Shown here in pieces: positions 718-59,861 of a stretch of 64,000 nt of DNA. Position 1 is the first letter of the stretch; every line of letters begins with the position of its first letter. The stretch is from an uncultured Acidobacteriota bacterium. Its GTDB lineage: Bacteria; Acidobacteriota; Vicinamibacteria; Vicinamibacterales; CAVVIG01. The stretch lies in the NCBI GenBank assembly GCA_963695635.1, contig CAVOHK010000009.1, forward strand, positions 72,671-136,670, read 5' to 3'. The position numbers and the translations under genes are program-made. The notes under the pieces were generated by a model. The model searched no databases. It saw only the letters and a list, made by a program, of their open reading frames with translations, and was not told the origin of the DNA.

Positions 718-3138
718 ATGCCGATGGATTTGTTCTGGAGCGATGCAAAACAGGCCTGGCGGAACGCCGTACGGCGTCCGGCCTTCACACTCCTGGTCGC
801 GCTGACACTGGCGCTAGGCATCGGCGTTAACAGTGCGGTATTCGCGCTGCTTGACGGCGTGCTTCTCCGACCGCTCCCGTATCGACAGCCGTCAGAGCTG
901 GTATTCATGTGGCAAACGCTGCCGCGCCTCAATGTTGCGGAAGTAGAAGCGACCGCGTTTGACTACGACGCCTGGCGAACGTTGCGAACCATTCCGGAGA
1001 TCGCGATGCTCACCTACAGCTCGTTCAGCATCACCGGTGGGAATGATCCGGAACGGGTGAAAGGCGCGCGGGTAACCGCCTCGTTGATGCCTACGCTCGG
1101 CATCGTTCCGGCGATCGGCCGCGGTTTCATAGACGCTGAAGACGGAGACGAAGTGCCGCGCGCCGCCATCCTCGGTGACGGCCTGTGGCGGCGACGATTC
1201 GGCGCCGACCCCTCTATTGTCGGCCGGCAGGTCGAGATCGACGGTGCATCGTGGACCGTTGTCGGGATCATGCCGCGCGGCGCAATCCTTCCTGGCTCAA
1301 CGCCGGCGGACAGCGAGTTGTGGTTGCCGATGCGGATGAGTCCGTCCGAGCGCGCCAACGACCTCAGTCACAGCTACACGTTGGTCGGCCGTCTTGCCGC
1401 GGGCACCTCGCTGACTCGAGCGACTGCAGAATTCGAGGCGCTCGGGACGCGCTTGGCGACTGAACGTCAATCGCATCGCGGCGTCGGTGTCCGGTTGGTG
1501 CCGTTTGCCGAGCAATCGGTCCGCGTCATTCGCCCGACGCTGATCGTGGCGGCCGCGAGCGTGGCCCTGCTGCTGCTTGTCGCCACGGCGAACGCGTCTA
1601 CGTTGTTGCTCGCGAGAGCGTCAAACCGGCGGGCCGAAACCGCGCTTCGCGCGGCATTGGGTGCGTCGCGGTCGCGGCTGCTGTCGCAAGCGCTGGTTGA
1701 AGGCGTGCTGCTCGCGTCACTCGGTGCGTTGCTCGGCCTTGCGCTGGGCGCATGGACGCTCAGGCTCCTGATCCCGCTCTTTGGCCCCTCGTTGTCGGCG
1801 TTGCCGATCGAGATCGGTCCGCGCGCCGCATTGTTCAGCTTCGGGCTCGCCTTCGCCATCGGCGCGCTGTTCGGCGTGATTGCCGCGTTCCACTCCGGCC
1901 CGCGGCTCGCCGATGCGCTCGGCGGTATCACGCGCTCCACTGCATCGAAGTCCACCTTGCGAACCCGTCATCTGCTGGTCGTTTCGCAAGTCTCGCTTGC
2001 CGTGGTTCTGCTCTCGGCCGCCGGCTTGATGCTATCGAGCGTTGCCAAGCTGTCGCGCGTCAGCACCGGCTTCGACGCCAACAATCTGCTTACATTCCGA
2101 GTGGCGCTCAGCACCGGTCGCTACGCCACCACGAGTTCGCGCGCGGTCTTTGTCGCGAACCTGCTCGAGCGGCTGTCGACGCTCCCAGGCGTCCAGTCGA
2201 GCGGTGCAGTCTCGGCCATTCCGTTCGGCGGGGCGCGTAATGCGAACGGCATCGAGATCGAGGGGCGACCGGTGTCGCCATCGGAACCGCCAATCGTCAT
2301 CGACCAGCGGTATGCATCGCCGAACTATTTCCAGGCGATGCGCATTCCACTGCTGATGGGCCGCGGATTCGTGGCGTCTGACGACGAGCGCGGCGAGCGT
2401 GTCGTGGTGATTAATAGAACGATGGCCAGGCGCTACTTTCCGAACGGCGATGCCGTGAATCGGCGGGTGCGCGCCACCGCCGGGCGCGATGCCGTCGGTT
2501 GGCTGCGGATCGTTGGCGTCGTCGACGACGTCCGGCATATCTCGCTGAGCCGCGATCCGGTTCCCGAGATGTATCACCCGTTCGCGCAGACGGCACCGCC
2601 GACCTTCACCGTCGTGTTGCGAACCGCAGCGGAACCAGCCGCGCTTGCCACCGCGGCGCGGGCCGGTGTCGTCGCGGTCGATCCGACGTTGCCAATCTAC
2701 GAAGTGCTGACCATGAAGCAGCGCGTGGCGTCGTCCCTTGCACAGACGCGCGGCACGATGTTGGTGTTGCTGGTCACGGCAGTCCTGGCCGCATCGCTGG
2801 CGGCGATCGCGATCTACGGATCGATCTGGTACGCCGTCGTTCAGCGTCAGAAGGAGATCGGTATCCGGATGGCGCTCGGCGCCTCGCGCGCGGCCGTATT
2901 TCGCGGCGTCGTTGGAGGAGCAATCGGACGCGCCGGCATTGGAGCCGTGGTTGGCGCGGCCGTGGCGATGGCGGGCGGTTCGTTGCTCCGCACGATGCTG
3001 TTCGAGACGCGGACCTCCGATCCGCTCACCTATGCCCTGGTCACCGTGGTCGTCCTTGCGGTCGCAGTGGTGGCGAGTGTGGTTCCGGCGCGTCGAGCGA
3101 TGACCATCGACCCGATGTCAGCCCTTCGCAACGAGTAG
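718..3138 (+). CDS. ADOP-family duplicated FtsX/MacB-type ABC transporter permease
   Basis: 811-aa ORF 703..3138. N-terminus DLFWSDAKQAWRNAVRRPAFTLLVALTLALGIGVNSAVFALLDGVLLRPLPY plus two FtsX-like TM bundles flanking large periplasmic domains. ATG at 718 preferred over TTG at 703. Confidence 0.85.
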   Translation: MPMDLFWSDAKQAWRNAVRRPAFTLLVALTLALGIGVNSAVFALLDGVLLRPLPYRQPSELVFMWQTLPRLNVAEVEATAFDYDAWRTLRTIPEIAMLTYSSFSITGGNDPERVKGARVTASLMPTLGIVPAIGRGFIDAEDGDEVPRAAILGDGLWRRRFGADPSIVGRQVEIDGASWTVVGIMPRGAILPGSTPADSELWLPMRMSPSERANDLSHSYTLVGRLAAGTSLTRATAEFEALGTRLATERQSHRGVGVRLVPFAEQSVRVIRPTLIVAAASVALLLLVATANASTLLLARASNRRAETALRAALGASRSRLLSQALVEGVLLASLGALLGLALGAWTLRLLIPLFGPSLSALPIEIGPRAALFSFGLAFAIGALFGVIAAFHSGPRLADALGGITRSTASKSTLRTRHLLVVSQVSLAVVLLSAAGLMLSSVAKLSRVSTGFDANNLLTFRVALSTGRYATTSSRAVFVANLLERLSTLPGVQSSGAVSAIPFGGARNANGIEIEGRPVSPSEPPIVIDQRYASPNYFQAMRIPLLMGRGFVASDDERGERVVVINRTMARRYFPNGDAVNRRVRATAGRDAVGWLRIVGVVDDVRHISLSRDPVPEMYHPFAQTAPPTFTVVLRTAAEPAALATAARAGVVAVDPTLPIYEVLTMKQRVASSLAQTRGTMLVLLVTAVLAASLAAIAIYGSIWYAVVQRQKEIGIRMALGASRAAVFRGVVGGAIGRAGIGAVVGAAVAMAGGSLLRTMLFETRTSDPLTYALVTVVVLAVAVVASVVPARRAMTIDPMSALRNE

Positions 3139-3990
3139 GTAGGCGCCGCGCCGGTTTCCGCGATCGAGAATGAAATCCACTGCCTTGTAGCCGCGTGCGA
3201 AGTAGGTGGTGAAGATCTCGCGCGTCGCCATGCGCCACTCGAGCGCAAGCGCAGGATCGTCGACGAGCATCTCGGTGAAGCCCATCGGGATCTGCACGGC
3301 GACCCGGCGGGCGTCGAGATGCAGATTGACGTCGGAACAGCTCGGCGAACCAGCCCGGGCGATCGTATTGGCGGCGACCGCATCGCTCGATTCATGGGAT
3401 CGCACGGGAATGGCGGTGCCCCCGCCGTCACGCCCGCTGTGTGCCGCGCGGGCAAGCCGACCCGCGACGTGCGGTTCGCGGATGTTCCATTCGGCAACGA
3501 ACCGGTCGGTCGGATTACCGGCATGAAGCGGGCTGTTCGAGGTGCCGTACACGTTGATCTCGTACTCTTCGACGACGACGCCGAGCTTGGTGAAGTTGAG
3601 GTGCGCATTGAGCGCCTGCATCGGGTCGTAGGTCCACTCGATGAGGTCGAGCCCCATCGCCAGCGTCCGCTCGCGCTGCAAGAGCTTGAGGTGGTGGCCG
3701 ACACCGTCGTTCCTGAACTCCGGCAGGACCCCGAGCATGTGCGACCACTGTGTCGGCTTGCTATGTTTGATGCCGGCGATCGAATAGACGAAGCCGATCA
3801 TCCGGTCGCCGTTAAACGCTCCTACGAGCACCCCGCCGCGCATCACGGTGATCGCGAAGATCGGCACCGGTACTACCTCGACGTAGCCCGGTCCCCAGAT
3901 AGTGCGCTCGAGTTCGACGACCTGCGCGAATTCATCGAGGGTCGTGAGATCGCGATAGGAGAGGGACGCGCTAGATTCCATTGTCGGCAT
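3118..3990 (-). CDS. GNAT-like acetyltransferase domain protein with uncharacterised C-terminal half
   Basis: 290-aa ORF. N-terminal half carries a GNAT motif-A-like region (LGVLPEFRNDGVGHHLKLLQRERTLAMGLDLIEWTYDP). Confidence 0.6.
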   Translation of the reverse strand: MPTMESSASLSYRDLTTLDEFAQVVELERTIWGPGYVEVVPVPIFAITVMRGGVLVGAFNGDRMIGFVYSIAGIKHSKPTQWSHMLGVLPEFRNDGVGHHLKLLQRERTLAMGLDLIEWTYDPMQALNAHLNFTKLGVVVEEYEINVYGTSNSPLHAGNPTDRFVAEWNIREPHVAGRLARAAHSGRDGGGTAIPVRSHESSDAVAANTIARAGSPSCSDVNLHLDARRVAVQIPMGFTEMLVDDPALALEWRMATREIFTTYFARGYKAVDFILDRGNRRGAYLLVAKG

Positions 3991-45951: not shown

Positions 45952-46860
45952 ATGGCGTGGTTCAAAAAGACCAAGAAGCCGATCGCCGCGGCGACCAAGG
46001 AAAAACCCAGCCGCGTCCCGGAAGGCTTGTGGGTGAAATGTCCCGACTGCGATCAGATCATCTACAACAAAGACCTGATCACCACGCTGAACGTCTGCCC
46101 GAAGTGCGCCCATCACTTCAAAATCAACGCCGTCGAACGGCTGCGCGTGCTGTTCGACGGCGAATGGACCGAGTACGACAAAGACCTGACATCGACCGAC
46201 CCGCTGCAGTTCACCGACACCAAGCCATATCGAGCACGTCTGCTGGCCAGCAAAGAAGCGACCGGGCTCAAGCGACGCCATCATCGTTGCCGAAGGCGAG
46301 ATTGAAGGGCTCCGCGCGATCGTCGCGTCGATGGAGTACGGCTTCATTGGCGGCAGCATGGGCGTCGTGGTCGGCGAAAAAATCACGCGGGGGATCGAGC
46401 GCGCGCTCGAACGGAAGCTGCCGGTCGTGATCGTCTCGCTGCTCCGGCGGCGCGCGCATGATGGAAGGCGCGCGGTCGTTGATGCAGATGGCCAAAATCT
46501 GCGGCGCGCTGGCGCGCCTCGACAAGGCGCGGCTGCCCTACATCGCCGTTCTCACCGATCCCACCACCGGCGGCGTCACCGCCAGTTTCGCGATGCTCGG
46601 CGACCTGAATATCGCCGAGCCCGAAGGCGCAAATCGGTTTCGCCGGCCCTCGCGTGATCGAGCAGACGATCCGCCAGAAGCTGCCGGAAGGTTTCCAGCG
46701 CAGCGAATTCCTGCTCGAAAAGGGCATGGTCGATCTGGTGGTCGACCGCCGCGATCTGAAGTCGACGATCGCCGGCGCGCTCCGCTTCATGCTGCCGACG
46801 CCGCCAGTCGCGACGATTCCGCTGCCGCAGGCAGCTGCCGAAATCGTGCCGCAGGCGTGA
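45952..46860 (+). CDS. accD: Acetyl-CoA carboxylase carboxyltransferase beta subunit, three +1 insertions as assembled
   Basis: Zn ribbon CPDCDQ...CPKC. Segments in three frames: ...KEATGLK | [37 protein letters not shown]...VIVS | [19 protein letters not shown]...NIAEP | [37 protein letters not shown]. Junctions at about 46272, about 46439 and 46620-46622. Confidence 0.92.
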
Positions 46861-48080
46861 ACCATCTCGATTACCTTTTCGGCCTCGAACAATTCGGCAT
46901 CAAGTTCGGTCTCGACAACATCCGCGCGATCCTCGAGGGTCTCGACCATCCGGAGCGCGACTTTCCGTCGATTCATGTCGCCGGCACCAACGGCAAGGGA
47001 TCCGTCACCGCGATGGTGGAAACCGGCCTTCGCGCCGCTGGCTACCGCACCGGCCGTTACACCTCGCCGCACCTGATCAACCTGCGCGAACGATTTGCTA
47101 TCGACGGCCGTGCGATTGACGATGAGACGATGATCGCGGCGGTCGGGGAGGTGCGCGCGGTCGTCGAGTCGCTGTTGCGAAACCGCGTCCTCGAAGTGCA
47201 GCCGACCTTCTTCGAAGTGACCACAGCGGTCGCATTCGAGCTGTTTCGACGATCACAAATCGGCTTCGCGGTCGTTGAAGTCGGCCTCGGAGGCCGCCTC
47301 GACGCGACCAACGTCCTATCTCCCGTGGCCTGTGCGATCACCTCAATCGCGTTCGACCATCAGTTGTATCTTGGGTCGACGCTGCGGGAAATCGCTCTCG
47401 AAAAGGCGGGCATCATCAAGCCGGGCGTGCCGGTCGTGGTGGGAGCGCTGCACGCTGAGGCGCTCTCGGCAATAGCCGAGGTGGCTCGCGCTCGCAATGC
47501 TCCCCTGGTTCAGGCGTCGCTCTCGGACGTTGCCGGCAAAACCATCGCGCTCCGCGGCGAACATCAGCGGATCAACGCCGCCGTCGCGTTGCGACTGCTT
47601 GCGACGATCGACCGGCAGGGCTTCCCGATTCCAGACGCTGCGATGCGCGCGGCGCTGGCCGACACCGAGTGGCCGGGCCGCATCGACCTCCGGACGCTGC
47701 ATGATGGCCGGCAATTGTTGATGGATGCCGCGCACAATGCGGCCGGCGCGGAGGCCCTGGCCTTATATCTTCGCCAGGCCGCGATCCGGCCGCCGCTCGT
47801 GTTCGCGGCAATGCGCGATAAAGAAATTGCCGGGATGCTGCGGCCCTTATTGCGCGAAGTGGATCGCTTGATCATCACGCGCGCAACGAATCCGCGGTCG
47901 GCGGATCCCGCACAACTGGCGCAAGTGGCTGCCGGCATCACAACGTCGGTGCCGATCGACATCGAACCATCCGTTCCGGACGCGTTGGAGCGCGCGTGGG
48001 ACAACGCGCCGCTGGTGCTGGTGGCCGGTTCGATCTTTCTGTTGGGCGACGTGATGCAGCACGTCGGTTTACACTGGTGA
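46857..48080 (+). CDS. folC: Bifunctional folylpolyglutamate synthase / dihydrofolate synthase
   Basis: GTG at 46857 overlaps the accD stop (GTGA). [12 protein letters not shown]-loop and a Mur-ligase-like fold. The classical accD-folC order. Confidence 0.9.
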
Positions 48081-50560
48081 ACGTGTCGAGGTCTTTCGGT
48101 GCCGTATGTATGGCTGTGGTGATTGTGGTGGCGTCTGCCCGCAATCACGCGCAGAGCGTTCAGCAGCCGCCGCCGACGCCAGCCACGCCACCTTCGACAA
48201 CGCCAGCAACACCACCCGCGACGCCAGCAGCGCCCCCAGCTTCCCCCCCAACCACCACACCGGCACCGGCAACACCTCAGCCTGCCGATGCTTCAGCAGG
48301 CGCTTCCGAGCCGGTGTCGCTGAGCGAATCGCTGATGCGGATTGGACCGAGCCATTACATCCGCCAGGGGAAAGTCGAGATCCACGACGCCAAGAACAAG
48401 ACCGACATTTACGCCGACCTGGTTGAGTTTTTCGAGGACGAGGATCGAGCAATCGCCACCGGAAATTTCGTCATGTCGCAGGGCACCAATCGGATTTCCG
48501 CGGAGCGCGCCGAGTTCAACACCAAGAGCGGGCTGGGTACGTTCTACAACGCCAGCGGCATCGCCACGATCACACCGCCGCGCCAGACCCGTCCCGGAGG
48601 CCTCGCCCCGCCGCCAACCGGCGACGTGCTGGTGTATTTCTTCGGCGAGACGGTCGAAAAGATTGGCCCCAAAAAGTATCGGATCACCAAGGGCGGGTTT
48701 TCGACTTGTGTGCAGCCGACGCCGCGTTGGGAAATGAGCGCCAGCACGGTGGTGTTGAACGTCGATCACTACACGCTGTTGAAGAACGCGGTGATGACGG
48801 TCAAGGGCGTGCCGATGCTTTACCTGCCGGTGCTGTATTACCCGACGAAGCGCGAAGACCGCGCCACCGGCTTCCTCTTGCCCACCTACGGCATTTCATC
48901 GCTGCGCGGCCAGGCGCTTCACAACGGGTTCTTCTGGGCGATCAACCGCAGTCAGGACGCGACGTTTTTTCACGACTGGTTCTCGAAAACCGGCCAGGGC
49001 GTCGGTACCGAATACCGCTATAACTACGGTCGCGGCACCGATGGAAATTTGCGGGCGTACATGCTCGATGAGAAAGAGGTCCAATACGTCCTGTCCGACG
49101 GCTCGCTCGGCGATCCGATTCCGGCCACTCGAAGTTACGAGTTCCGTGGCGGTGCGAACCAGCGCCTGCCTGGAAATCTGATCGCTCGCGCGAACATCGA
49201 CTACTTCTCGAGTTTGCAGACGTCGCAAACGTTCAATACCAACATCTACGACTTTTCGCGCAATTCGCGCCGCTATGGCGGCAACATCGTCGGCGCCTGG
49301 GGCACCTACTCGATGAACGCCACGCTCGACCATAGCGAGTACTTCTACAACGCGGACGAATCGGTCCTGTCGGGCGTCTGGCCGCGGTTTGCGCTCAACC
49401 GCAACGAGCGGCCGATTCCTGGAACACCGCTCTACCTGTCAGTGACCAGCGAGATCGCGCGGCAACTGCGCGACACCAATGCCTTCAACGCCGATCACGA
49501 GATCGAGACGACCAGCCAGTCGCTCAGCCGGTTCGACGTCGCGCCGCAAATTCGATTCCCGTTCAAGAAATGGCAGTGGCTGACCGCGAACACCACCGTC
49601 AGCGCGCGCGAGACCTATTACACGCGGAGCTACGCGCCGACCGGCGATCCGGCGGTCCGTCCTTCAGTCGTCACTGACGAACCGCTCAGTCGGCCGGTCT
49701 TTTCCATCCAATCGCAAATTACCGGACCGCTGTTCAACCGCATCTGGGATACGCCGAACAATGGGTATGCGGAGAAGTTCAAGCACTCGATCGAGCCGTT
49801 CCTCTACATCACCAAGACGGCGGATGTCGAGAATTACGACCGCGTGATCGTGTTCGACGGCATCGACAGCTTCGTCGGTGGCACGACCTATCGGTACGGG
49901 TTGGCCAATCGTTTTTACGCGAAGCGAAAGATGCAGCCTGGACAGCCGTCGCAAGCGCGCGAAATTGCGGCGGTCGAGATTTCGCAGTCGTACTACACCA
50001 ACCAATACCAGTCGATTTACGATCGGCAGTACCAGTCGACCACCTACGGCGACACCATCCCATCGAACTTTTCACCGATCGCGCTGAACTTTCGCACGAC
50101 ACCGGGAAACCAGGTGAACACCACCGTTCGCGCGGAATTCGACAGTCGCTCGCACGAACTGATGACGATTTCGGCGTCGGGCACGGTGACGATTGGCTCG
50201 TTCGTTCAAGCCCAGGCCGGTTGGAGCAAGCGAGCCTTCGTCGAATCGCTGTCGAATTTCAACAACAAGGATTTTCTCGACCACTTCATCAATTCGTCGA
50301 CGACGGTGCGGACGCGCGACAACAAATACGGCACGACCTACACCTTCAACTACGACGTGTTGCACGACGCGATCCTGCAACAGCGCCTCACCGGCTTCTA
50401 CAACGCCCAGTGCTGCGGCCTGGCGATGGAGTATCAGACCTTGAATTACGGCGCGAATTCCAGCTATCCGCCGGATCGCCGTTTCTTCCTGTCCTTCACG
50501 CTCGCAGGCCTTGGCAACTTCTCTCCGTTCAATGGCGCGATGAGCGGCGTGCCGCGGTAG
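48077..50560 (+). CDS. lptD: LPS-assembly outer-membrane protein LptD/OstA family
   Basis: GTG at 48077 overlaps the folC stop. Signal peptide [20 protein letters not shown], a Pro/Thr-rich linker, an OstA-like N-domain and a large barrel. Confidence 0.75.
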
Positions 50561-50570
50561 TCGCTCACCG

Positions 50571-51554
50571 ATGACCACCACTCTCGTCACTGGCGCTGCC
50601 GGATTTGCCGGCAGCCATTTACTGGATCTGCTTGCTGACGTTCCGGGCGCCTCGGACCGCATCGTCGCGTGGCAACGCCCCGGCAGCAATCGGCGGCAGG
50701 CTGACGCCGGCGGCATCGTCTGGGAAGAGGTGGACGTCCTCGACCGCGACGCGGTGCGAGCGGCCGTCGCGAGAATCCGCCCATCGATGGTCTACCACTG
50801 CGCCGGCGCCGCGCATGTCGGACGCGCGTGGGACAAGACCGAATCGACGTTTGCGATCAACGTCCGCGGCACGCACTACCTGCTCGATGCGTTGTCGCGC
50901 GTCGATCAGAACTGTCGGGTACTGATTCCCGGCTCCGCGCTCGCCTACACCCCGGCCGACCGCGCGTTGACCGAGCGCGACCCGCTGGTTCCGTCGAGTC
51001 CGTACGGCGTCAGTAAGCTGGCGCAGGAGATGCTCGCCGCGCATGCTGGTGATAATCTGTCGGTCGTCGTTGCACGTGCGTTCAATCACTTCGGTCCGCG
51101 CCAGGATCCGTTGTTCGCAGCCTCGGGATTTGCGCAGCGGATCGCCGACATCGAGCGCGGCCAGTGGGAACCGACGATCTCGGTCGGCAACCTCGATGCG
51201 CGCCGCGACCTGATGGACGTGCGCGACACGGTGCGCGCCTATCGCCTGATGCTGGAGCGGGCCAAACCGGGCGACATCTTCAACGTCTGCACCGGCACCG
51301 CAATCACGATCCGCGAGCTGCTCGATAAGCTGATTGCCCGAGCGAAGGTTCCGGTCACCATTGCGGTCGATCCGGCGCGCATGCGCCCCAACGACACGCC
51401 ACTGCTCCTCGGCGACCCGACCCGGATCCGGGAAACGCTTGGCTGGGTGCCACGGATTCCACTCGAACAGACAGTTGACGACCTGCTCGATTACTGGCGA
51501 AATCAGGCAAAGTCGAAAGTCGAAAGTCCAAGTCTGAAAGTCGGTGAAGTCTGA
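50571..51554 (+). CDS. Extended-SDR NAD-dependent sugar epimerase/dehydratase (GDP-sugar reductase-like)
   Basis: TGAAGFAGSHL Rossmann motif and YGVSKLAQE catalytic YxxxK. The last about 15 codons are encoded by the repeat array. Confidence 0.8.
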   Translation: MTTTLVTGAAGFAGSHLLDLLADVPGASDRIVAWQRPGSNRRQADAGGIVWEEVDVLDRDAVRAAVARIRPSMVYHCAGAAHVGRAWDKTESTFAINVRGTHYLLDALSRVDQNCRVLIPGSALAYTPADRALTERDPLVPSSPYGVSKLAQEMLAAHAGDNLSVVVARAFNHFGPRQDPLFAASGFAQRIADIERGQWEPTISVGNLDARRDLMDVRDTVRAYRLMLERAKPGDIFNVCTGTAITIRELLDKLIARAKVPVTIAVDPARMRPNDTPLLLGDPTRIRETLGWVPRIPLEQTVDDLLDYWRNQAKSKVESPSLKVGEV

Positions 51555-51598
51555 AGTCTGAAGTCTGAAAATTTGCAATCTGCAATCGCCAATTTGCA
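51509..51598. repeat. Adjacent short-period arrays (GTCGAAA / GTCTGAA heptamers, then GCAATYTG octamers)
   Basis: aagtcgaaagtcgaaagtccaagtctgaaagtcggtgaagtctgaagtctgaagtctgaaaatttgcaatctgcaatcgccaatttgca. It ends at the ATG of the next gene. Confidence 0.85.
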
Positions 51599-52531
51599 AT
51601 GAGAGTGTTACTCACTGGCGGCACCGGATATCTCGGCCAACGCATCGCGCAGGCCCTGGCGGCTCGCGGTCACCAGCTGACGGTGTTTGCGCGCTCCGCG
51701 GAACAGGCCGGCCTTCCCGGACGCGCATGCAATGGCGACATCCGAGACCGCCGCGCACTCGAACAGGCCGCCGCGGGTTGTGAGGCGATTGTCCACACCG
51801 CAGCGCTGGTCAGCATCTGGCAGCGTGGCGGCGGCACGATTTTCGACGACGTCAACGTCGGCGGCTTACGAAACGTCATCGATGCCGCTGCCGCCAACGG
51901 CATCGGTCGGATCGTGTATACGTCGTCGTTTCTCGCGCGACCGCCTGCTGATTCGCCCACACCGATCGACGCCAACGACTATGCGCGAACGAAGATCGCC
52001 GCGGAGCGGCTGGCTGACGATGCCGTTCAACGCGGAGCGCCGATCATCCGTCTCTATCCCGGGGTGATTTACGGGCCAGGCGCGCGGACTGAAGGCAATC
52101 TGCTGGGCAGGTTGATCGCCGACCATTTGCGTTGGCGGCTTCCCGCGATCGTCGGACCGGAAAAGATCTGGTCCTTCGCCTACGTCGACGACGTTGCCGC
52201 CGGCCATTGCGCCGCGGTCGAAAGTGGCGCACTCGGTGGACGCTACGCGCTCGGCGGCGACAACGCGCCGCAGCGCCGAGCGTTCGAAATTGTCCAACAG
52301 TTGACCGGCCGCCGGCCGCCGCTTCGAATGCCGTTTTCGGTTGCCGTCGGACTTGGCGTGATTGAACAAAGCCGCGCTCGCCTGTTCGGCGGCATGCCGC
52401 TCGTCACTCCCGGGACTGTCGAAATCCTCCGGCACGATTGGCCACTCGACAGCACTGACGCCGTTCGCGATCTCGGCTACGCCATGACGCCACTCGCCGA
52501 GGGCATCCGCAGAACCGTGGCGTCGTTGTGA
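51599..52531 (+). CDS. Extended-SDR NAD-dependent epimerase/reductase
   Basis: TGGTGYLGQRI Rossmann motif and YARTKIAAE YxxxK. The stop overlaps the next start (GTGA). Confidence 0.8.
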   Translation: MRVLLTGGTGYLGQRIAQALAARGHQLTVFARSAEQAGLPGRACNGDIRDRRALEQAAAGCEAIVHTAALVSIWQRGGGTIFDDVNVGGLRNVIDAAAANGIGRIVYTSSFLARPPADSPTPIDANDYARTKIAAERLADDAVQRGAPIIRLYPGVIYGPGARTEGNLLGRLIADHLRWRLPAIVGPEKIWSFAYVDDVAAGHCAAVESGALGGRYALGGDNAPQRRAFEIVQQLTGRRPPLRMPFSVAVGLGVIEQSRARLFGGMPLVTPGTVEILRHDWPLDSTDAVRDLGYAMTPLAEGIRRTVASL

Positions 52532-53859
52532 CCGGTCACAACGAGAGGGCGCGGCAATGGGTCCACGCGGGATCCGGGGCTTTCGCACTCGCGCTGCGAT
52601 TTCTAACCTGGTGGCAGGCAGCCCTCCTGGCAGCGATTGCGCTGGTCTTCAATGCGCTCGTGTTGCCGTACGTCGGCGGACGACGCTTGTACCGTCCGGT
52701 CGATCAGGCGCGCGGCTTTCCGCTCGGCATCCTGTTGTATCCGCTTGCGGTGCTGATGTTGATCCTGATGTTTCCGTCGCGGCTCGACATCGCCGCCGCG
52801 GCGTGGGCGATTCTCGCGCTCGGCGACGGTGCCGCGACGCTGGTCGGTCAGGCGGTTCGCAGTTCGCCGCTGCCGTGGAACCGCGACAAAAGTGTTGCGG
52901 GAACTGCAGCGTTCGTCGGACTCGGAGCAATCGGCGGCGTCGCACTGGCCTGGTGGACGCGAACCGCGATCGATCCTCAACCCTCGATGACATTTACGAT
53001 TCTGGCGCCGGTCGTCGCGGCAGTCGTGGCCGCGTCCGTCGAAACCATCCCCGTGCGGTTGGACGACAACATCTCGGTGCCGGCGACCGCGGCCGCAGTC
53101 CTGTGGTTGGCCAGCATCGGTTCAGCCGCGGTGCTGCACGACGCGTTGCCATCGATCTTCGCGACGCTGCCGTGGGCGCTAGCCGTCAACATTCCGGTCT
53201 CTTACCTTGGGTATCGCGCGAAGACCGTCAGCTTGTCGGGTTGCATTGGCGGCGCCGTCATCGGACTCGTCATCTACGCCTGCCTTGGCGGCGGCGCCTG
53301 GCTCTTTCTCTTCGCGACGTTTCTGGTCGCATCGGTGACGTCGCGGCTTGGGCTGAAACGAAAGCTGCTGCTCGGCATCGCGGAGGATCGTGGCGGGCGC
53401 CGCGGCGCCGGCAATGCGATAGCGAACTGCGGTATCGCTGCGGCAGCGGCAATCGCCGCGGTCACGACGCCGCATCGCGAGGCGGCCTTGCTGGTATTCG
53501 TCGCCGCGTTGACAGCGGGTGGTAGCGACACGGTGGCCAGCGAGATCGGCAAGGCGTTTGGCAAAGCAACGTTTCTCGTGACGACATTTCGCCGTGCGCC
53601 CGCCGGCACGTCGGGTGCGATGTCGCTGGAAGGAACGGCGGCCGGCCTGTTGTCGGCGGTAGCGCTCGCCGCGCTTGCCGTCGTGCTGCAACTGATTCCG
53701 TCGCCGGCCGTGGTCGTAGTCAGCGTGGCAGCCACCATCGGCGCGCTGGTCGAGAGCGCGCTGGGCGCGACGCTCGAAGGACCAGGTATCCTGAACAACG
53801 ACATGCTCAACTTTCTCAACACCGCCGTCGCGGCAGCAGCGGTGCTGGCGATCGGATGA
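52528..53859 (+). CDS. Fusion membrane protein: CTP-dependent polyprenol kinase-like domain (dolichol kinase/VTE5 family) + DUF92 (TMEM19/VTE6-like) domain
   Basis: N-half has LALGDGAATLVGQAVRSSPLPWNRDKSVAGTAAF. C-half has GGSDTVASEIGKAFG and AGTSGAMSLEGTAAG. More than 10 predicted TMs. Confidence 0.7.
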   Translation: MTGHNERARQWVHAGSGAFALALRFLTWWQAALLAAIALVFNALVLPYVGGRRLYRPVDQARGFPLGILLYPLAVLMLILMFPSRLDIAAAAWAILALGDGAATLVGQAVRSSPLPWNRDKSVAGTAAFVGLGAIGGVALAWWTRTAIDPQPSMTFTILAPVVAAVVAASVETIPVRLDDNISVPATAAAVLWLASIGSAAVLHDALPSIFATLPWALAVNIPVSYLGYRAKTVSLSGCIGGAVIGLVIYACLGGGAWLFLFATFLVASVTSRLGLKRKLLLGIAEDRGGRRGAGNAIANCGIAAAAAIAAVTTPHREAALLVFVAALTAGGSDTVASEIGKAFGKATFLVTTFRRAPAGTSGAMSLEGTAAGLLSAVALAALAVVLQLIPSPAVVVVSVAATIGALVESALGATLEGPGILNNDMLNFLNTAVAAAAVLAIG

Positions 53860-54755
53860 AGCCCTACTTCGAGCTTGGGCGACCGTTCACGCTCGTCGCT
53901 CCAGCCCTCGGCTTTTTGTCCGGTGCGTTGACGGCCGTTGGCGCCGCCCCTCCCGAAACCTGGAGTCTGGGACTGATGGTTCCACCGATTCTCGGATCGG
54001 TGATGGCGGCTACGCTGAACGCCGGCAACAACGCGCTGAATCAGATTTACGACCTCGAGATCGACCGGGTCAACAAGCCGAAGCGGCCGCTGCCAAGCGG
54101 GCGGCTGAACATCACCCAGGCGTGGATCTTCACGGCGATTACCTACGTCGCCGCGCTCGTGCTGGCATGGTTGGTCGCGCCCGGCGGGCGGCATGAATGC
54201 TTCTGGCTGGTCGCAATCGCGGTGGTGTGTACTTTTATCTACTCGGTGCCGCCGTTGCGGACCAAGCGGCTGGGCATCTGGGCAAACATCACGATTGCGA
54301 TTCCGCGCGGCACCCTGCTGAAGGTTGCGGGATGGTCGTCGGTGAAAACGATTTTCGGCGTCGAGCCATGGTACATCGGCGCCATTTTTGGATTGTTCCT
54401 TCTTGGCGCGACTACCACCAAAGACTTCGCTGATATGGAAGGCGACCGACGCGGCGGTTGCCGGACGCTGCCGATCCAGTACGGCGTACAACGCGCGGCG
54501 TGGATGATTTCACCATCGTTCGTGGTGCCGTTCACGATGATTCCGATCGGATCGTGGATCGGCATTCTGACCGGCAATTTCTGGCTGTTACAGGTGCTCG
54601 GCGTGGTGATGACGGTTTACGGGGTCTACGTCTGTTATCTGATGCTGCGGCGTCCCGAAGAGCTCGCGGTCGAGGAAAACCACGTCTCGTGGGCTCACAT
54701 GTACCGCATGATGTTCGTCGCGCAGATCGGATTCGCGATCGCGTACCTCCTTTAA
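53856..54755 (+). CDS. UbiA-superfamily prenyltransferase (chlorophyll synthase / DGGGP synthase-like branch)
   Basis: NALNQIYDLEIDRVNKPKRPLPSG and KDFADMEGDRRGGCRTLP Asp-rich motifs. ATGA overlap with the upstream gene. Confidence 0.85.
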   Translation: MKPYFELGRPFTLVAPALGFLSGALTAVGAAPPETWSLGLMVPPILGSVMAATLNAGNNALNQIYDLEIDRVNKPKRPLPSGRLNITQAWIFTAITYVAALVLAWLVAPGGRHECFWLVAIAVVCTFIYSVPPLRTKRLGIWANITIAIPRGTLLKVAGWSSVKTIFGVEPWYIGAIFGLFLLGATTTKDFADMEGDRRGGCRTLPIQYGVQRAAWMISPSFVVPFTMIPIGSWIGILTGNFWLLQVLGVVMTVYGVYVCYLMLRRPEELAVEENHVSWAHMYRMMFVAQIGFAIAYLL

Positions 54756-54901: not shown

Positions 54902-55570
54902 TTACCCCAGTTTCCAGAAGTCCCCGGTCAACCCCACGCTCGCGAAGATCTCATGTGCTTCGTCCACGGTCGGCCGGCGGAAATCGGGATCGAGCCGCGA
55001 ACCGTACCATCGCTGCGACAACGACCACACCTGAGCGATCGTCAGGGTGGCGCCGCGCTCGACACCACGCGCGTCACACCACCGCGCCACGTTCTCTTCC
55101 GACCGGAAGAGCAGGATGTTGGCTCACGTGTAGAAGATGTCGTCCCAAAAACGACGTGCCGGCACTTCGAGATGCACAACGCCCGCGCCTTCGACAACGC
55201 CACGCTGAACCGTCGCGGGCAATGCTTCTCCTGACCACGCGCATTTCGCCTCGAGCAGTGCATCTTCCTTGAGCGCCGCCGCCACACCGAACATGTCCCA
55301 TGCGCAGGGTGCGTACCAGGACACAGCGGCGCCATGCGCACGGAACGAACTCGGAACGGCAGAAAACGGCGGCGCCGACCACAACTGGACTGTTCCCGGC
55401 TTCAGAACGACAACGTGTGATTCGGCGAGTGTCTCGAACGCGTGGGTAACGTCCGCGACAGCAAGTTCTTCAACGGCTGCAACTTGTTGGACCGTCGGGG
55501 CAAGGCCGGTGGCGACGATGCGGTCGTAAATGACGCTCCTGACGCGCTGCAGCAGCTCGGTCTGCGGCAT
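54902..55570 (-). CDS. MerB (alkylmercury lyase) family protein with an in-frame TGA at the catalytic-Cys position; candidate selenoprotein
   Basis: ORFs 55124..55570 and 54902..55090 share one frame and are separated by the TGA at 55124-55126. PCAWD (C-x-x-D), a Cys 21 residues later, and ...FWDDIFYT-TGA-ANILLFRSEE... aligned with MerB ...SFCCHVHFFAS... Confidence 0.65.
55086..55123 (-). promoter_or_regulatory. Candidate bacterial SECIS element
   Basis: mRNA reads UGA-GCCA-ACAUCCUG-CUCUUCC-GGUC-GGAAGAG-AACG-UGGC. A 7-bp perfect stem with a GGUC loop starting 19 nt after the UGA. An optional 4-bp lower stem. Confidence 0.55.
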
Positions 55571-55605: not shown

Positions 55606-56659
55606 GTGGCGAAGAAAAAGCGTATGCCAGCCTTCCCTTTACTCTTCGACCTCGAACCGCGTCGAGCGAAGCCTACCGTCCGCGATGTCGCGAATACCGT
55701 AAAGCGCGGCGGCACCGAAGCGCTCACCGAAGCAGAACGACGCGCCGATCAAGCGACCTATCAGGAAGTGACCTGCCGTTCGGCGCTCAACCGCGTGAAA
55801 GGAATGCCGTTCGACTGGACGCTCAACCCCTATCGCGGCTGCACGCACGGTTGCCATTATTGCTATGCGCGGCGCTATCACCGCCAATTCGAGATGAACG
55901 CCGACGACGAATTCGCGTCGGTGATTCTGGTAAAGAAGAACTTCGTCGAGGTGCTCGAACGTGAACTGGCGAGGCCCTCGTGGACCGGCGAGTACATCGC
56001 AATCGGCACCGCGACCGACTGTTACCAGCCGATCGAAGGCCATTACAAGTTGACGCGCGAATCGTTGAAGGCGCTGGTGCGCGCACGGAATCCGGCCGGC
56101 TTGATCACCAAAGGCCCGATGGTGGTGCGCGATCGCGACGTGCTGTCGGACTTGACCAAAGCGGCCGGCTGCACCGTCTACATCAGTGTGCCGACGGTAG
56201 ACGAGCACGCCTGGGAGACGCTGGAGCCTGGCACGGCACATCCGCTGCAGCGCTTGCGAGCGGTTCGAGAACTGGTCGACGCCGGCATCAGCGCGGGCGT
56301 TCTGATGAATCCGATCGTCCCTGGCTTCTCCTCGTCACGCGCGAAGATCGAGCGGACGATCAAGGCGATTGCCGACCACGGCGCGCGCTTCGTCGGCTGC
56401 AACGTGATGTTCCTCGAAGACGGAACCCGCGACCATTTCATGAAGTTCCTGGCACGCGACTTTCCGTCGTGGGTGCCACGTTACGAACGCCTCTACGCCA
56501 GGAAGTACGCACCCGACGACTATCGGAAACAGGTGCAAGGGATGATTCGGGTGCTTCAGGACCGATACGGAGTCGTCCGCCGCGAGCGTCCGAGCGAGGC
56601 GAAACAGCTCCCCGGCGTCGTTCGCCGGGGAGGTTGCGCAGGTTGGATTCGCCTTTTAG
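55606..56659 (+). CDS. Radical SAM protein (SplB/COG1533-like), probable frameshift near the 3' end
   Basis: YRGCTHGCHYCYARRY CxxxCxxC cluster motif. As read, the ORF runs on to 57666 antisense to clp. Dropping one C of the CCCC at 56610-56613 gives ...AKQLPASFAGEVAQVGFAF-stop at 56657-56659. Confidence 0.8.
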
Positions 56660-58956
56660 GCGACGGCGATCGTCGGATCGGTCGACATCAATTTCGCTGG
56701 CGCCGCTTCGACGTGAATGTCGCCGTTCTTGACGCGCACTTCGAAGTGCGAGCCATCTTTCCAGTGCGCGCTGATCGGCAGCTTGATGTGTTCGTCGATG
56801 AAGCGCTTCAGGAAGCGCGCGCCGAATGCCATGTTGTAGCCCTTGGCGACAATCACTTCGAGCGCGTCGTCCGACACGTCGATGGTCTTGCCGGCCCGGC
56901 CCAGGGTCAGCGTCACCTTCTGCATGTAGTTGCGGGCGATGGCGCGAACTTCATCGTGGGTCAGCGGCGCGAACAGCACGACTTCGTCGATGCGGTTGCG
57001 GAACTCCGGCGGGAAGCGGCGTTCCAGTTCCCGGAGCACTTCGCCCTGCACCTGCTCGACTCCGGCGGTCCGATTGAGGAAGCCGAGCGGACTGGTCAGC
57101 TTGCGGAAGTTTTCCGAGCCGATGTTCGAGGTCATGATGATCACGGCGTCGCTCAGATAGACGCGCTTGCCGCGGCCGTCGGTCAACCAGCCTTCGTCAA
57201 AGGCCTGGAGGAAAAGATTGAGCAGATTGGGACTGGCTTTTTCCACTTCGTCGAGCAGGACGACCGTGTACGGATTGTCCTTGAGCTGATTGGTCAGGAT
57301 GCCACCGCGCTCGCTGCCGACGATGCCACGAGGCATGCCGATCAGTTTGTCGACCGCCACCGACCCGTCCTGGTACTCGGACATGTCGACGCGAACCATT
57401 TTCTTCTCGTCGCCGAACAGGAATTCCGCCACCGCCTTGGCGAGCTCGGTTTTGCCGACGCCGGTCGGACCGAGGAACAGCAGCACACCGTCTGGACGAT
57501 CGAATCCGTCCTTGAGCGGCCCTTTGTTCAACACCAGCCGCTGCGCCACCGAACGGACGGCGTTTTGTTGGCCAACGACACGTTTCTGCAGGCGGACTTC
57601 GATGTCCTTGAAGCGGTCGGTGACGTCGCGATAGACCATGTCTTCGGGAATCGAAGCGGCGTGTGAGATCACCGACACCACATCGTCGGTCTTCACTTCC
57701 CAGCGGCGATCGATTTCCGCGCGAACCGCCGCGGTATCGAGCCAGCCGATCACTTTGTCGGGCAAATGCAGATGACGCATGTAGCGCGGCGACAGGTCGA
57801 GTGCGGTTTCGATCGCTTCGTCGAGCATCCGCACTGAATAGTTGCGTTCGAGCCTGGGCCGCAGGCTGTAGAGAATCCGGCGGGTTTCCTCGATCGTCGG
57901 TTCACAGACGTTGACGCAGCGGAACCGGCGCGCCAGCGCCTCGTCTTCCTGGATGTACTCTTTGTATTCGCTGAGCGTGGTGGCGGCAATCATCCGAATC
58001 TCGCCGCGCGCCAGGACCGACTTCAGCACATTGGCGGCGTCCGATGGCGCTCCCAGCGCCGAACCGGCGCCAACCATGGTGTGCGCCTCGTCAACGAACA
58101 GCACGAGATTCGGGCGTTCCTTCAGTTCACGGATTACGTTCTGAATGCGATCCTCGAACATGCCGCGCAGCATCGTGCCCGCGACCATCGTGTTCATCTG
58201 CAGATTCACCAACTGACAGTCGCGCAGGCGCACCGGAACGCTTTCCGGTTCGAATTCGACGCGGCGAGCAAGACCTTCGACGATCGCGGTTTTGCCGACA
58301 CCCGGTTCGCCGACCAGCATCACAGAGTTGGCACGTTCGCGGTGACAAAGGATTTCCAGCACCTGCTGGATTTCCTTGTCGCGTCCGAAAACCGGCGGCA
58401 CTTTATCCTGACGCGCCAGCAGGTTGAGGTTGGTGGCGAAGTGTTTGAGGAACGGCGGCAGCTCGAAGCGCTTCTTGAGCCGTTCGTCGCGCAACTCCAT
58501 GTCGCGCATCCGTGCGGTCAGACGGTTGACCAATGCTTCCGGTTCGACGCCATGGCGCCGCAGGATAGAAACTGGAACGCCCTGGGTTTCCTCGAACACG
58601 GCCGAGAACAGGTCGGCGGCTTCAATCGTCTGGCGACCGGCCCGGCTGGCGTGGTGCAGTCCGAGCTTGAACACCAGTTTCGTCGCAGGCGAGACGCGGA
58701 TGTCGCGGCCGGCGAACGACGGCAGCATGTGCAGATGCTCCTCGACCGCCTGAAGGATGGTGTGCGGGTTCAGCTCGATGTCGCGCATGACCTCGGCGAA
58801 CATGTCCCATTCCACCTGGGCGAAGGCGAGAAAAATATGTTCGTTGGTGAGCAGCGCATGCTCCCGCCGACGCGCCTCTTCGACAGCGCGATCAACGATC
58901 CGTTGCGCCGTTTCTCCTATCTTGCTTGGCGAGATGTCGAGGTCGTCTACTATCAC
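56656..58956 (-). CDS. Clp/Hsp100 AAA+ unfoldase, ClpA/ClpC-like (two AAA modules, no long middle domain)
   Basis: Clp N-domain, Walker A GEPGVGKTAIVEGLARR and GPTGVGKTELAKAVAEF, and an LGF ClpP-docking-like loop. GTG at 58956 after GGAGGG preferred over 59034. Confidence 0.88.
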   Translation of the reverse strand: MIVDDLDISPSKIGETAQRIVDRAVEEARRREHALLTNEHIFLAFAQVEWDMFAEVMRDIELNPHTILQAVEEHLHMLPSFAGRDIRVSPATKLVFKLGLHHASRAGRQTIEAADLFSAVFEETQGVPVSILRRHGVEPEALVNRLTARMRDMELRDERLKKRFELPPFLKHFATNLNLLARQDKVPPVFGRDKEIQQVLEILCHRERANSVMLVGEPGVGKTAIVEGLARRVEFEPESVPVRLRDCQLVNLQMNTMVAGTMLRGMFEDRIQNVIRELKERPNLVLFVDEAHTMVGAGSALGAPSDAANVLKSVLARGEIRMIAATTLSEYKEYIQEDEALARRFRCVNVCEPTIEETRRILYSLRPRLERNYSVRMLDEAIETALDLSPRYMRHLHLPDKVIGWLDTAAVRAEIDRRWEVKTDDVVSVISHAASIPEDMVYRDVTDRFKDIEVRLQKRVVGQQNAVRSVAQRLVLNKGPLKDGFDRPDGVLLFLGPTGVGKTELAKAVAEFLFGDEKKMVRVDMSEYQDGSVAVDKLIGMPRGIVGSERGGILTNQLKDNPYTVVLLDEVEKASPNLLNLFLQAFDEGWLTDGRGKRVYLSDAVIIMTSNIGSENFRKLTSPLGFLNRTAGVEQVQGEVLRELERRFPPEFRNRIDEVVLFAPLTHDEVRAIARNYMQKVTLTLGRAGKTIDVSDDALEVIVAKGYNMAFGARFLKRFIDEHIKLPISAHWKDGSHFEVRVKNGDIHVEAAPAKLMSTDPTIAVA

Positions 58957-59002
58957 TGCTGCCCTCCGCTGTCGAGCAAACAGCAATTCGTACGCCAGTC
59001 GA

Positions 59003-59026
59003 ATCTGTGGCCTTTCGGCCACAGAT
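59003..59026 (-). other. Perfect 10-bp hairpin between htpX and clp
   Basis: atctgtggcc-tttc-ggccacagat (GAAA loop on the minus strand). No U-tract. Confidence 0.6.
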
Positions 59027-59033
59027 GTAATCA

Positions 59034-59861
59034 CTAACCCTTCTGTAGGAGCGCCTTGATCCGTTCCGCGGTCGGGGGGTGTGTCGAAAAGAGGCCAGAG
59101 AGAGTCTGCGCAGAAAACGGCTTGATAATGAACATGTGGGCAGTCGCCGGATTCGCATCCATCGGGATGGATTTTGACGCCGCTTCGATCTTCGTCAGTG
59201 CGCTGACAAGACCGTGCGGTCCACCGGCGATGTCCGATCCGCCGGCGTCGGCATCGTATTCGCGGGAGCGAGAAATGGCGGTCTGAATCAACATTGCGGC
59301 AACCGGCGCCAGGATTATCGTCGCGAACAGAACGATGGGGTTCGCGCCCCGATCGTTGTCGCGATGTCCGCCGCCAAAGAACATGACAAAGCGCGAGAGG
59401 AACATGATCGCCGCCGCGAGCGTCGCCGCCACCGAGCTAATCAGGATGTCTCGATGCTTGACGTGCGTCAGCTCGTGCGCGATCACCCCTTCCAGTTCGT
59501 CATTCGTCAGGATGCCCAGGATTCCCTCGGTGGCCGCGACCGCCGCGTGATCCGGGCTTCGGCCGGTAGCGAACGCATTTGGCGACATGTCCGGGATCAC
59601 GTAGACACGCGGCATCGGCAGGCCGGCGCGCTGCGCAAGCCGGCCAACCAACTCGTACAAACGATCGCCGGGGCCAACTTCCTTCGCCCGGTACATGCTG
59701 AGCACGATCTTGTCCGAGAACCAGTAGGACCCGAAGTTCATCGCGGCCGCCATGAACAGGCCGGCCAGCATGCCCTGCGCGCCGCCGAGCATCTCGCCGA
59801 AAATCAGGAACAGCGCGCTCATCGCGCCGAGCAGAATCGTCGTCTTCAGTACATTCGACAT
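59034..59861 (-). CDS. htpX: M48-family zinc metalloprotease HtpX
   Basis: HELTHVKHRD (HExxH) and four TM segments. Confidence 0.93.
   Translation of the reverse strand: MSNVLKTTILLGAMSALFLIFGEMLGGAQGMLAGLFMAAAMNFGSYWFSDKIVLSMYRAKEVGPGDRLYELVGRLAQRAGLPMPRVYVIPDMSPNAFATGRSPDHAAVAATEGILGILTNDELEGVIAHELTHVKHRDILISSVAATLAAAIMFLSRFVMFFGGGHRDNDRGANPIVLFATIILAPVAAMLIQTAISRSREYDADAGGSDIAGGPHGLVSALTKIEAASKSIPMDANPATAHMFIIKPFSAQTLSGLFSTHPPTAERIKALLQKG

Follow-up and report, generated by a model that had tools for sequence, protein, structure and literature searches.

We describe here a gene string from an uncultured soil member of the Vicinamibacterales (Acidobacteriota), contained in a 64,000-nt stretch of DNA (GCA_963695635.1, contig CAVOHK010000009.1; hereafter the window), in which a gene for a short-chain dehydrogenase/reductase (SDR2) is followed by a gene for a protein that joins a prenol-kinase-like domain to a DUF92 domain, and then by a gene for a prenyltransferase of the UbiA superfamily. 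We propose that the fused protein serves as prenol kinase and prenyl-phosphate kinase at once, and that the prenyl diphosphate it would form is transferred to an acceptor by the coupled UbiA enzyme. We put the probability of this reading at about one half, taken jointly with the view that positions 50571 to 54755, which also hold a second such gene (SDR1), constitute a single operon in this genome of Acidobacteriota subdivision 6.

In the proposed pathway, the N-terminal VTE5/dolichol-kinase-like domain would use cytidine triphosphate (CTP) to convert a free isoprenoid alcohol into its phosphate, and the C-terminal DUF92 domain would add a second phosphate to give the prenyl diphosphate. The translationally coupled UbiA enzyme would then ionise the diphosphate at two Asp-rich Mg2+ sites and move the prenyl chain onto a hydroxyl or carboxyl group of the acceptor. 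The proposal is built on a gene structure, domain homologies, motif conservation and a conserved tight packing of genes, all of which were observed directly; from these sequences we infer both kinase activities, the use of CTP, the chain length of the prenol, the flow of product into UbiA and the nature of the acceptor.

A protein that joins two kinase families

The open reading frames (ORFs) of SDR2 (51599..52531, + strand, 310 aa, ATG start), of the kinase fusion (52528..53859, + strand, 443 aa, GTG start) and of UbiA (53856..54755, + strand, 299 aa, ATG start) are joined, as the original prediction had it, by 4-nt stop/start overlaps, GTGA at 52528-52531 and ATGA at 53856-53859. Because 4-base overlaps are frequent in bacterial operons, they are by themselves unremarkable, and the signal that rises above chance is the conservation of tight packing across related genomes. 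In 79 of these the projected gap between the fusion and UbiA genes has a median of 14 nt, and that between the SDR gene and the fusion a median of 3 nt, often -4; the 4-nt overlap of fusion and UbiA occurs in the window and also in one related locus (L099). Promoter and terminator consensus scans detected no internal signal above chance within the gene string.

The fusion protein consists of a VTE5/dolichol-kinase-like domain followed by a DUF92 (VTE6-family) domain, and the three peptide motifs originally quoted from its two halves were all located in the sequence: LALGDGAATLVGQAVRSSPLPWNRDKSVAGTAAF at residues 96-129, GGSDTVASEIGKAFG at 331-345 and AGTSGAMSLEGTAAG at 359-373. Could this arrangement be an artefact of a missed stop codon or an indel? 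Elsewhere in the window, accD (acetyl-CoA carboxylase carboxyltransferase beta), at about 45952-46660, is broken over three reading frames, its pieces being ORFs 45952..46305 and 46331..46657 and the first ~60 codons of 46458..48080, which continues from accD into folC to give a 540-aa ORF. The breakage reflects either several assembly indel errors or a pseudogene. Since the assembly may therefore hold indels, the integrity of the fusion was tested and not assumed.

No damage of this kind is present in the SDR2, fusion and UbiA ORFs, and each of the three has full-length homologue matches; the UbiA protein is identical to the database protein P0121 over 299 aa (100%), and SDR2 aligns to the HpnA model (327 positions) from position 1 to 318. 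Searched with the fusion, a collection of 5.8 billion proteins yielded ~3000 relatives, and nearly all of the best 120, which were inspected, are full-length proteins of 430-491 aa with 65-99% identity. A locus survey with one genome per species identified 188 species with a relative of the fusion; the best 80 loci, all from Vicinamibacterales / Acidobacteriota subdivision 6, were examined, and the fusion architecture is the same in at least 80 species genomes. With at least 120 full-length homologues and 80 species loci that carry the same fusion, the evidence rules against the artefact that the original prediction had allowed for. According to an AlphaFold2 model (mean per-residue confidence, pLDDT, 89.5; predicted template-modelling score, pTM, 0.87) the protein is all-helical, with no stretch of three or more residues under a pLDDT of 50. 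A tblastn search of plasmids with the fusion gave zero matches.

The N-terminal domain (52540..53100, + strand, residues 5-191, as delimited by hhalign against a VTE5 profile) is, judged by homology and catalytic motifs, a member of the VTE5 / FOLK / dolichol-kinase family (COG0170). Our reference was the catalytic region of Arabidopsis VTE5, which is matched by a 100% identical database protein named phytol kinase, together with 119 more plant sequences, most of them bearing the same name, and a profile of 22 plant VTE5 sequences. BLASTP against Arabidopsis VTE5 gave 31% identity over 121 aa (E = 9e-14). Comparison with the 22-sequence profile by hhalign gave a probability of 98.8% and an E-value of 1.1e-16 over 172 columns (residues 5-191 against VTE5 55-253), with the GDG, K-S-x-x-G, E-T/S-x-P and DDNISVP motifs in register; with a more diverse profile of stand-alone N-domain proteins these values rose to 99.8% and 5.4e-29. 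In a control, the same half aligned to E. coli CdsA with a probability of 1% (E = 0.057), VTE5 itself reaching CdsA at E = 9e-4, and no solved CdsA structure was reached by sequence searches with the N-terminal half. The comparison thus upholds the earlier placement of this half in the prenol/dolichol-kinase branch, as opposed to plain CdsA. The PROSITE-style CdsA signature, which we take to be KRxxxxKDxxxxxPGHGGxxDR, is absent from the fusion sequence by eye, and this counts against the idea, considered below, that the protein is a cytidylyltransferase.

Among 40 fusion proteins the invariant residues of this half are R9, H13, D100 (within GDG, 52822-52830, + strand), K121-S122, G125, E172 and D179-D180-N181 (53062-53070, + strand). 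D100, K121, G125, E172 and the DDN triplet align with residues that are invariant in VTE5, namely D160, K181, G185, E232 and D241-D242-N243. The activity that these likenesses predict is a CTP-dependent phosphorylation of a prenol.

The domain is nearly invisible to family databases. Scans of the N-terminal half gave no match to Pfam, PF01148 included, even at E-values up to 10, and none to NCBIfam; nor did the protein sequence or two profiles match any solved structure. Of the 120 genuine plant VTE5 sequences that were listed, however, 118 likewise lack a precomputed PF01148 match, so that the silence of Pfam carries little weight. A profile of residues 1-212 retrieved 3470 relatives from 1.84 billion representative proteins, 971 of them at E <= 1e-10, and these comprise many stand-alone proteins of 190-215 aa in addition to fused ones. 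The stand-alone proteins share the invariant motifs E..R(K/Q)..H, W..LA.GDG.A...G, LPWN..KS.AG, E(S/T) and DDN..VP, and a PF01148 match (at 5e-5) was obtained for 2 of 23 such homologues.

The C-terminal half holds a complete DUF92 / COG1836 domain (53194..53835, + strand, residues 223-436), which confirms the earlier assignment: it matches Pfam PF01940 at 148.1 bits (cut-off 27.5, E = 3.8e-43) over profile positions 5-251 of 251. By Pfam it is a member of the family, if a divergent one. S333-D334-T335 (53524-53532, + strand) and N423-N424-D425 (53794-53802, + strand) are invariant, D334 and D425 being so in 40 sequences; that they correspond to the Asp pair of CdsA is taken from the literature (PMC5898192), according to which COG1836, the equivalent of pfam01940, shows kinship to the cytidylyltransferase family (HHpred, 97.6%), with both catalytic Asp residues retained. 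The link from DUF92 to VTE6 likewise comes from published work, in which At1g78620 is listed under COG1836 with a predicted function in phytol-phosphate metabolism (PMC3223725); At1g78620 is VTE6. The C-terminal half may accordingly be regarded as a putative prenyl-phosphate kinase.

The distribution of the two domains argues that their steps are functionally coupled. The fused form occurs in ~70 of the best 150 clusters at 50% identity, and the VTE5-like domain precedes DUF92 every time. In two further loci (L093, L094) the VTE5-like and DUF92 genes are separate but adjoin in that order, stop and start overlapping within 1-2 nt and the pair coming just after a polyprenyl synthase gene, and in three others (L085-87) the two genes are separated by one small gene. 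The polyprenyl synthase beside the pair in one lineage, together with the uppS neighbour of the archaeal relatives described below, ties the family to isoprenoids.

Two genes that accompany the split forms deserve mention in their own right. The small gene of the freshwater lineage (L085 2340-2711, also in L086 and L087) encodes a 123-aa Pol-beta-type nucleotidyltransferase-like protein. In L093, a 635-aa type I phosphodiesterase / nucleotide pyrophosphatase gene (1847-3754) lies between the polyprenyl synthase gene and the VTE5-like/DUF92 pair, its end overlapping the start of the kinase gene; the product could be a partner that releases a prenyl-diphosphate or a nucleotide.

One idea about the origin of the fusion was not confirmed here, and one about its partners was set aside. 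An internal duplication, suggested by the literature, is unsupported by our own hhalign comparison of the C-terminal half with the N-terminal and VTE5 profiles, which was not significant (E = 0.045-0.1, probability ~1%, with shallow profiles). We also dropped three apparent SDR-kinase "fusion" proteins (P0300, P0341, P0337) as support from gene fusion: P0300 stems from a locus where the kinase gene is fragmented over frames and UbiA is missing, and is therefore probably a frameshift artefact or a pseudogene. In this locus (L084 7001-9334, on a long Vicinamibacterales-like contig) the fragmented fusion runs together with the SDR ORF that lies upstream of it, and the radical-SAM gene is not preceded by a UbiA gene; either the module was lost naturally or the assembly is damaged.

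An orphan UbiA-family prenyltransferase

The third protein (53856..54755, + strand) belongs to the UbiA superfamily, with 134 bits against Pfam PF01040 (cut-off 34.2), and carries both Asp-rich motifs: N62-Q-I-Y-D66-L-E-I-D70 (54039-54065, + strand) and K189-D190-F-A-D193-M-E-G-D197 (54420-54446, + strand). The patterns N62xxxD66xxxD70 and D190xxD193xxxD197 are invariant in 23 UbiA sequences.

In a comparison with NCBIfam, which matched 32 families of which 25 were listed, the best model was PRK12884, an archaeal 'prenyltransferase' (135.7 bits, cut-off 269), followed by the ChlG model PRK07566 (123.6, cut-off 313). The BchG/ChlG models TIGR01476 and TIGR02056 scored 109.3 (cut-off 212.3) and 75.2 (cut-off 436), homogentisate phytyltransferase (HPT) 106 (cut-off 226), and the DGGGPS models PRK12882 and PRK12883 101 (cut-off 296) and 85.1 (cut-off 353). 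The quinone and haem models lie lower: ubiA_proteo at 41 (cut-off 275), MqnP at 40-42 (420-430) and cyoE_ctaB at 51.6 (210), and no MenA model appears among the 25 listed matches. Among solved structures, the scores are 78.5-79.5 bits for DGGGPS (6m31) and 73-78 bits for ChlG (9sas/9sau), against 31-34.5 bits for AfUbiA and 33 bits for ApUbiA. The expected proximity to chlorophyll synthase and DGGGPS is thus borne out as a tie, at about 79 and 78 bits, with the quinone and haem enzymes far lower. These scores place the protein in an orphan clade, apart from the quinone and haem enzymes and within that region of the superfamily which holds ChlG, HPT and DGGGPS. An EboC / Ubi-297 identity was rejected (50 bits, cut-off 250), the operon being different as well. 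An AlphaFold2 model from a shallow alignment (pLDDT 52) was too poor for a fold search.

DGGGP synthase and chlorophyll synthase, which the enzyme resembles, are O-prenylating, and O-prenylation is accordingly its most likely reaction. In favour of the proposed pathway, its nearest relatives use C20 prenyl diphosphates. Its identity across the order is 72-88%, compared with 53-70% for the fusion and about 40-60% for LptD.

Gene neighbourhood and competing explanations

A gene for an LptD-like outer-membrane protein (47996..50560, + strand, 854 aa) heads the conserved gene string. It is 39% identical over 742 aa to a gene in L084 that carries Pfam LptD_2; LptD_2/LptD genes hold the same position in L095 and L099, and lptD lies upstream in 69 of the 80 related loci. 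It is followed by SDR1 (50571..51554, + strand), an Rmd-like extended SDR and putative NDP-6-deoxyhexose 4-reductase (Pfam GDP_Man_Dehyd, 195 bits). Its best solved relative is GDP-6-deoxy-D-lyxo-4-hexulose reductase (2pk3), an Rmd to which it aligns end to end at 211.6 bits (E = 1.4e-61); its own sugar and nucleotide specificity is putative. SDR2 (+ strand) is by its sequence a member of the extended SDR class, HpnA-like / 3-beta-HSD-like (Pfam Epimerase 104.6 bits, 3Beta_HSD 71 bits), with TGGTGYLG near the N-terminus (GxxGxxG) and YARTK (YxxxK). The NCBIfam model for the hopanoid-associated sugar epimerase HpnA (TIGR03466) scores best, ahead of OleD and SdmB, and aligns end to end, but at 186.6 bits it stays under the cut-off of 367.65, and no hopanoid genes lie nearby; the best solved relative is a putative oxidoreductase (3wj7, 115.6 bits). 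Tandem heptamers at 51509-51600 (~9 copies of AAAGTCG / AAGTCTG, then ~4 of AATCTGC) cover the last codons of SDR1 and the 44-nt spacer ahead of SDR2.

Downstream of UbiA, a 148-aa ORF on the - strand (55124-55570) matches Pfam MerB (alkylmercury lyase; E = 1.2e-10) and is present at this place in just 7 of the 80 related loci. The radical-SAM ORF beyond it (55606-57666) is 686 aa long, its homologues in L084 and L099 only 316-346 aa, and past about residue 340 it reads antisense of clpB (56656-59034, - strand), which points to the loss of a stop codon, to an indel or to a spurious extension of the frame through high-GC sequence.

Of the 80 loci, 79 have UbiA next after the fusion and 78 have an SDR gene ahead of it. 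SDR1 is found in 78 loci and SDR2 in 40; in the other 39 it is the SDR1 orthologue that lies immediately upstream of the fusion. Three loci (L025, L041, L099) show the longer order lptD, rmlA-like, rmlC-like, rmlB-like, SDR1, SDR2, fusion, UbiA; in the 64-kb window tblastn found neither rmlA, rmlB or rmlC nor a polyprenyl synthase. Outside the Vicinamibacterales, SDR1 homologues with 35-39% identity stand directly upstream of a VTE5-like gene or a fusion in L082, L085-87 and L095, and in L098 two SDR genes of the GDP_Man_Dehyd/Epimerase type, assigned by Pfam only, directly precede the fusion; no UbiA gene was seen on any of these contigs. No other neighbour of VTE5-like/DUF92 genes is as widely conserved across distant lineages as the gene for the Rmd-like reductase. 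In L085 the order is RmlD, SDR, VTE5-like, DUF92, UDP-glucose/GDP-mannose dehydrogenase, SDR and a PMT_2-type GT-C glycosyltransferase.

These surveys change the picture of a self-contained module in which SDR2, the fusion and UbiA would suffice. SDR2 is present in only half of the order, SDR1 is the wider partner and occurs also in lineages without UbiA, and relatives carry rmlA, rmlC and rmlB in the same string; the module is therefore not self-contained. The claim of a coupled operon survives in part, in that the tight packing is conserved, while the adjacency of kinase and UbiA is limited to the Vicinamibacterales and its flanks are equally syntenic.

Several observations weigh against our proposal. 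The region folC-lptD-...-radical SAM-clpB is equally syntenic across the 80 loci, so that the adjacency of fusion and UbiA partly reflects shared ancestry and is weaker evidence of coupling. This adjacency is found only inside the Vicinamibacterales, and even there one Vicinamibacterales-like contig (L084) is without UbiA at this position. Two loci (L090, L096) have the fusion alone amid housekeeping genes, and together with the SDR-SDR-fusion strings that come without UbiA (L095, L098) they indicate that the kinase is independent of this UbiA. The recurring neighbours are sugar-nucleotide enzymes, joined in L085 by a GT-C glycosyltransferase, which fits a carrier-lipid role better. The C-terminal half stays, at 155.3 bits, under the trusted cut-off of TIGR00297 (205.85), and the bacterial members of the family are known from their sequences alone. 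No polyprenyl synthase was found in the window or its flanks, and no GGGP-synthase-like gene was seen there, although no search with a GGGP synthase reference sequence was made. It is also unexplained why a highly conserved UbiA enzyme would be fed by free prenol and not by prenyl diphosphate made de novo.

Part of this evidence is better accommodated if the fusion is a polyprenol kinase (undecaprenol- or dolichol-type) whose role is to make or recycle the carrier, a long-chain polyprenyl phosphate or diphosphate, of an envelope glycan or lipopolysaccharide with rhamnose or another 6-deoxyhexose in it, UbiA being a later addition in the Vicinamibacterales that need not use the kinase product. 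We take this for the main and a serious rival and consider it possible, if rather unlikely. It would account for the linkage to lptD, rmlA-C-B and Rmd-like SDR genes, including the order lptD, rmlA, rmlC, rmlB, SDR1 in L099, L025 and L041, and for the Rmd-like SDR upstream of the VTE5-like gene or fusion in the UbiA-less loci (L082, L085-87, L095, L098). The PMT_2-type GT-C transferase of L085 belongs to a class that uses polyprenyl-phosphate sugars, the archaeal members adjoin uppS, a cis-prenyl synthase gene, and a near-identical fragment of the fusion (P0045) is named 'dolichol kinase' by JGI. A monophosphate carrier, however, needs no second phosphorylation by DUF92, and the tight, often overlapping packing of fusion and UbiA across the order argues for co-translation and a shared pathway. 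The N-terminal half moreover matched VTE5, which acts on C20 phytol, strongly; VTE5 was the sole reference family in this comparison, long-chain dolichol kinases being left out.

Returning to the two-kinase pathway that feeds UbiA, SDR1, SDR2 and the rml genes of the relatives suggest a part for a deoxysugar, or for some other component of an envelope glycolipid, in the acceptor or the final product. A bolder version, which we advance as speculation and hold to be doubtful, is that the lptD-(rml)-Rmd-HpnA-like-kinase-UbiA operon builds an undescribed isoprenoid-bearing envelope lipid, in which UbiA would O-prenylate a glycerol- or deoxysugar-type acceptor with a prenyl diphosphate that the fused kinase, dedicated to this task, would make, possibly from plant-derived phytol or geranylgeraniol that was scavenged.

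A further alternative would reverse the roles of the substrates. If UbiA acted like the mycobacterial decaprenyl-phosphate phosphoribosyltransferase (DPPR synthase), the polyprenyl phosphate made by the kinase would be the acceptor, phosphoribosyl pyrophosphate or a nucleoside-diphosphate (NDP)-6-deoxyhexose the donor, which would ionise at the Asp-rich site, and the resulting lipid-linked sugar would be modified by SDR2. This would give a role to every gene of the lptD-rml-SDR1-SDR2-kinase-UbiA string; the UbiA superfamily does contain one such enzyme, in group G6 (PMC9235831), and extended SDRs of this type carry out epimerisation and reduction of sugars. Nevertheless we judge it improbable. 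No similarity to the DPPR-synthase branch was seen among the 25 listed of the 32 matched NCBIfam models or among solved structures at E-values up to 10, the nearest UbiA relatives all take prenyl diphosphate donors, the DUF92 step is left without a role, and an NDP-sugar donor has no precedent in the superfamily.

Least credible, and to our mind very improbable, is a reading in which the product of one half, or of both, would be a CDP-activated lipid alcohol such as CDP-prenol in place of a diphosphate, in the manner of CdsA or CarS: both families do lie in the CTP-transferase superfamily and have two catalytic Asp residues in common (PMC5898192), PF01148 is matched by the 2 of 23 stand-alone homologues mentioned above and the adjacent SDRs are of the nucleotide-sugar-binding type, but the N-terminal half aligns with VTE5 at E-values of 1e-16 to 5e-29 against just 0.057 for E. 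coli CdsA, and the characterised members nearest each half, VTE5 and VTE6, are kinases.

Relation to known systems and significance

Among the closest parallels to the proposed pathway is phytol salvage. In plants and cyanobacteria, VTE5 and VTE6 supply phytyl diphosphate to UbiA-family enzymes (PMC5694494, PMC10849223), the consumers being HPT/VTE2, MenA and ChlG. The window holds the same two kinase families in the same pathway order. The N-terminal half shares GDG, K-S-x-x-G, E-S/T-x-P and DDN-SVP with VTE5, and the consumer UbiA comes from the ChlG/HPT/DGGGPS part of its superfamily. Unlike in plants, the two kinases are one polypeptide, the host is a non-phototroph without chlorophyll as a source of phytol, the UbiA enzyme falls in no known consumer clade, and the operon includes SDRs of the sugar-nucleotide type; the identity of the N-terminal half to plant VTE5 is just the 31% given above.

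The fused architecture itself has been known from archaea since 2015. Several archaeal COG1836 members, for example Mbar_A3310 of Methanosarcina barkeri, begin with a Sec59/dolichol-kinase-like domain (99.85%), and uppS is conserved beside them (PMC5898192). Going by the published description (Makarova, Galperin and Koonin 2015, PMC5898192), these arCOG02245 proteins have the same domains in the same order, and what seem to be the same Asp pairs, as the window fusion, and a kinase step in isoprenoid metabolism was predicted for them, as it is here. In contrast to these archaeal proteins with their uppS neighbour, the window fusion is bacterial and lies beside Rmd-like and HpnA-like SDRs and UbiA.

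With respect to the prenyltransferase, MjDGGGPS (6m31) is the best-scoring solved relative, and the two proteins have near-identical motifs, NxxxDxxxD followed by NKPxRPLPSG, and KDFxDMEGD. The window enzyme nevertheless reaches only 101 and 85 bits where the DGGGPS models require 296 and 353, and no GGGP synthase gene was seen nearby, a statement that comes from no reference-based search. ChlG/BchG (9sas, 9sau) scores as high as DGGGPS, at 73-78 bits, and JGI labels some of the UbiA homologues so; the window protein differs in falling under the family cut-offs, and no photosynthesis genes were seen in the flanks. The Vicinamibacterales are described as chemoheterotrophic. Bacterial DGGGPS homologues occur in the FCB group (PMC7852524), and in Cloacimonetes the genes of the two synthases (GGGP and DGGGP) are co-located.

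Known already are the two kinase families, the UbiA superfamily and, from archaea, the fused form of the kinases. What appears new or uncharacterised is the bacterial fusion family, widespread and yet hidden from Pfam, its conserved partnership with an Rmd-like SDR, and the highly conserved orphan UbiA clade that is coupled to it in the Vicinamibacterales. Genes for two-step prenol salvage have hardly been characterised outside plants (PMC10849223), and a compact bacterial fusion enzyme would be a handy model for both steps and of use wherever prenols are to be fed into engineered isoprenoid pathways.

What would the pathway mean for its hosts? The Vicinamibacterales are a common, dominant order of soil Acidobacteriota. 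The UbiA enzyme is 72-88% conserved among them, where its neighbours reach 40-60%, and belongs to no known branch; what it makes therefore probably matters to these abundant soil organisms. Should the kinase do no more than recycle the carrier lipid of a glycan, the finding would be an ordinary one. An isoprenoid ether or ester lipid, or a lipid-linked sugar, would as a product have consequences for the biology of the acidobacterial envelope, and a bacterial source of ether- or ester-bound isoprenoids could change how isoprenoid lipid biomarkers in soil are read.

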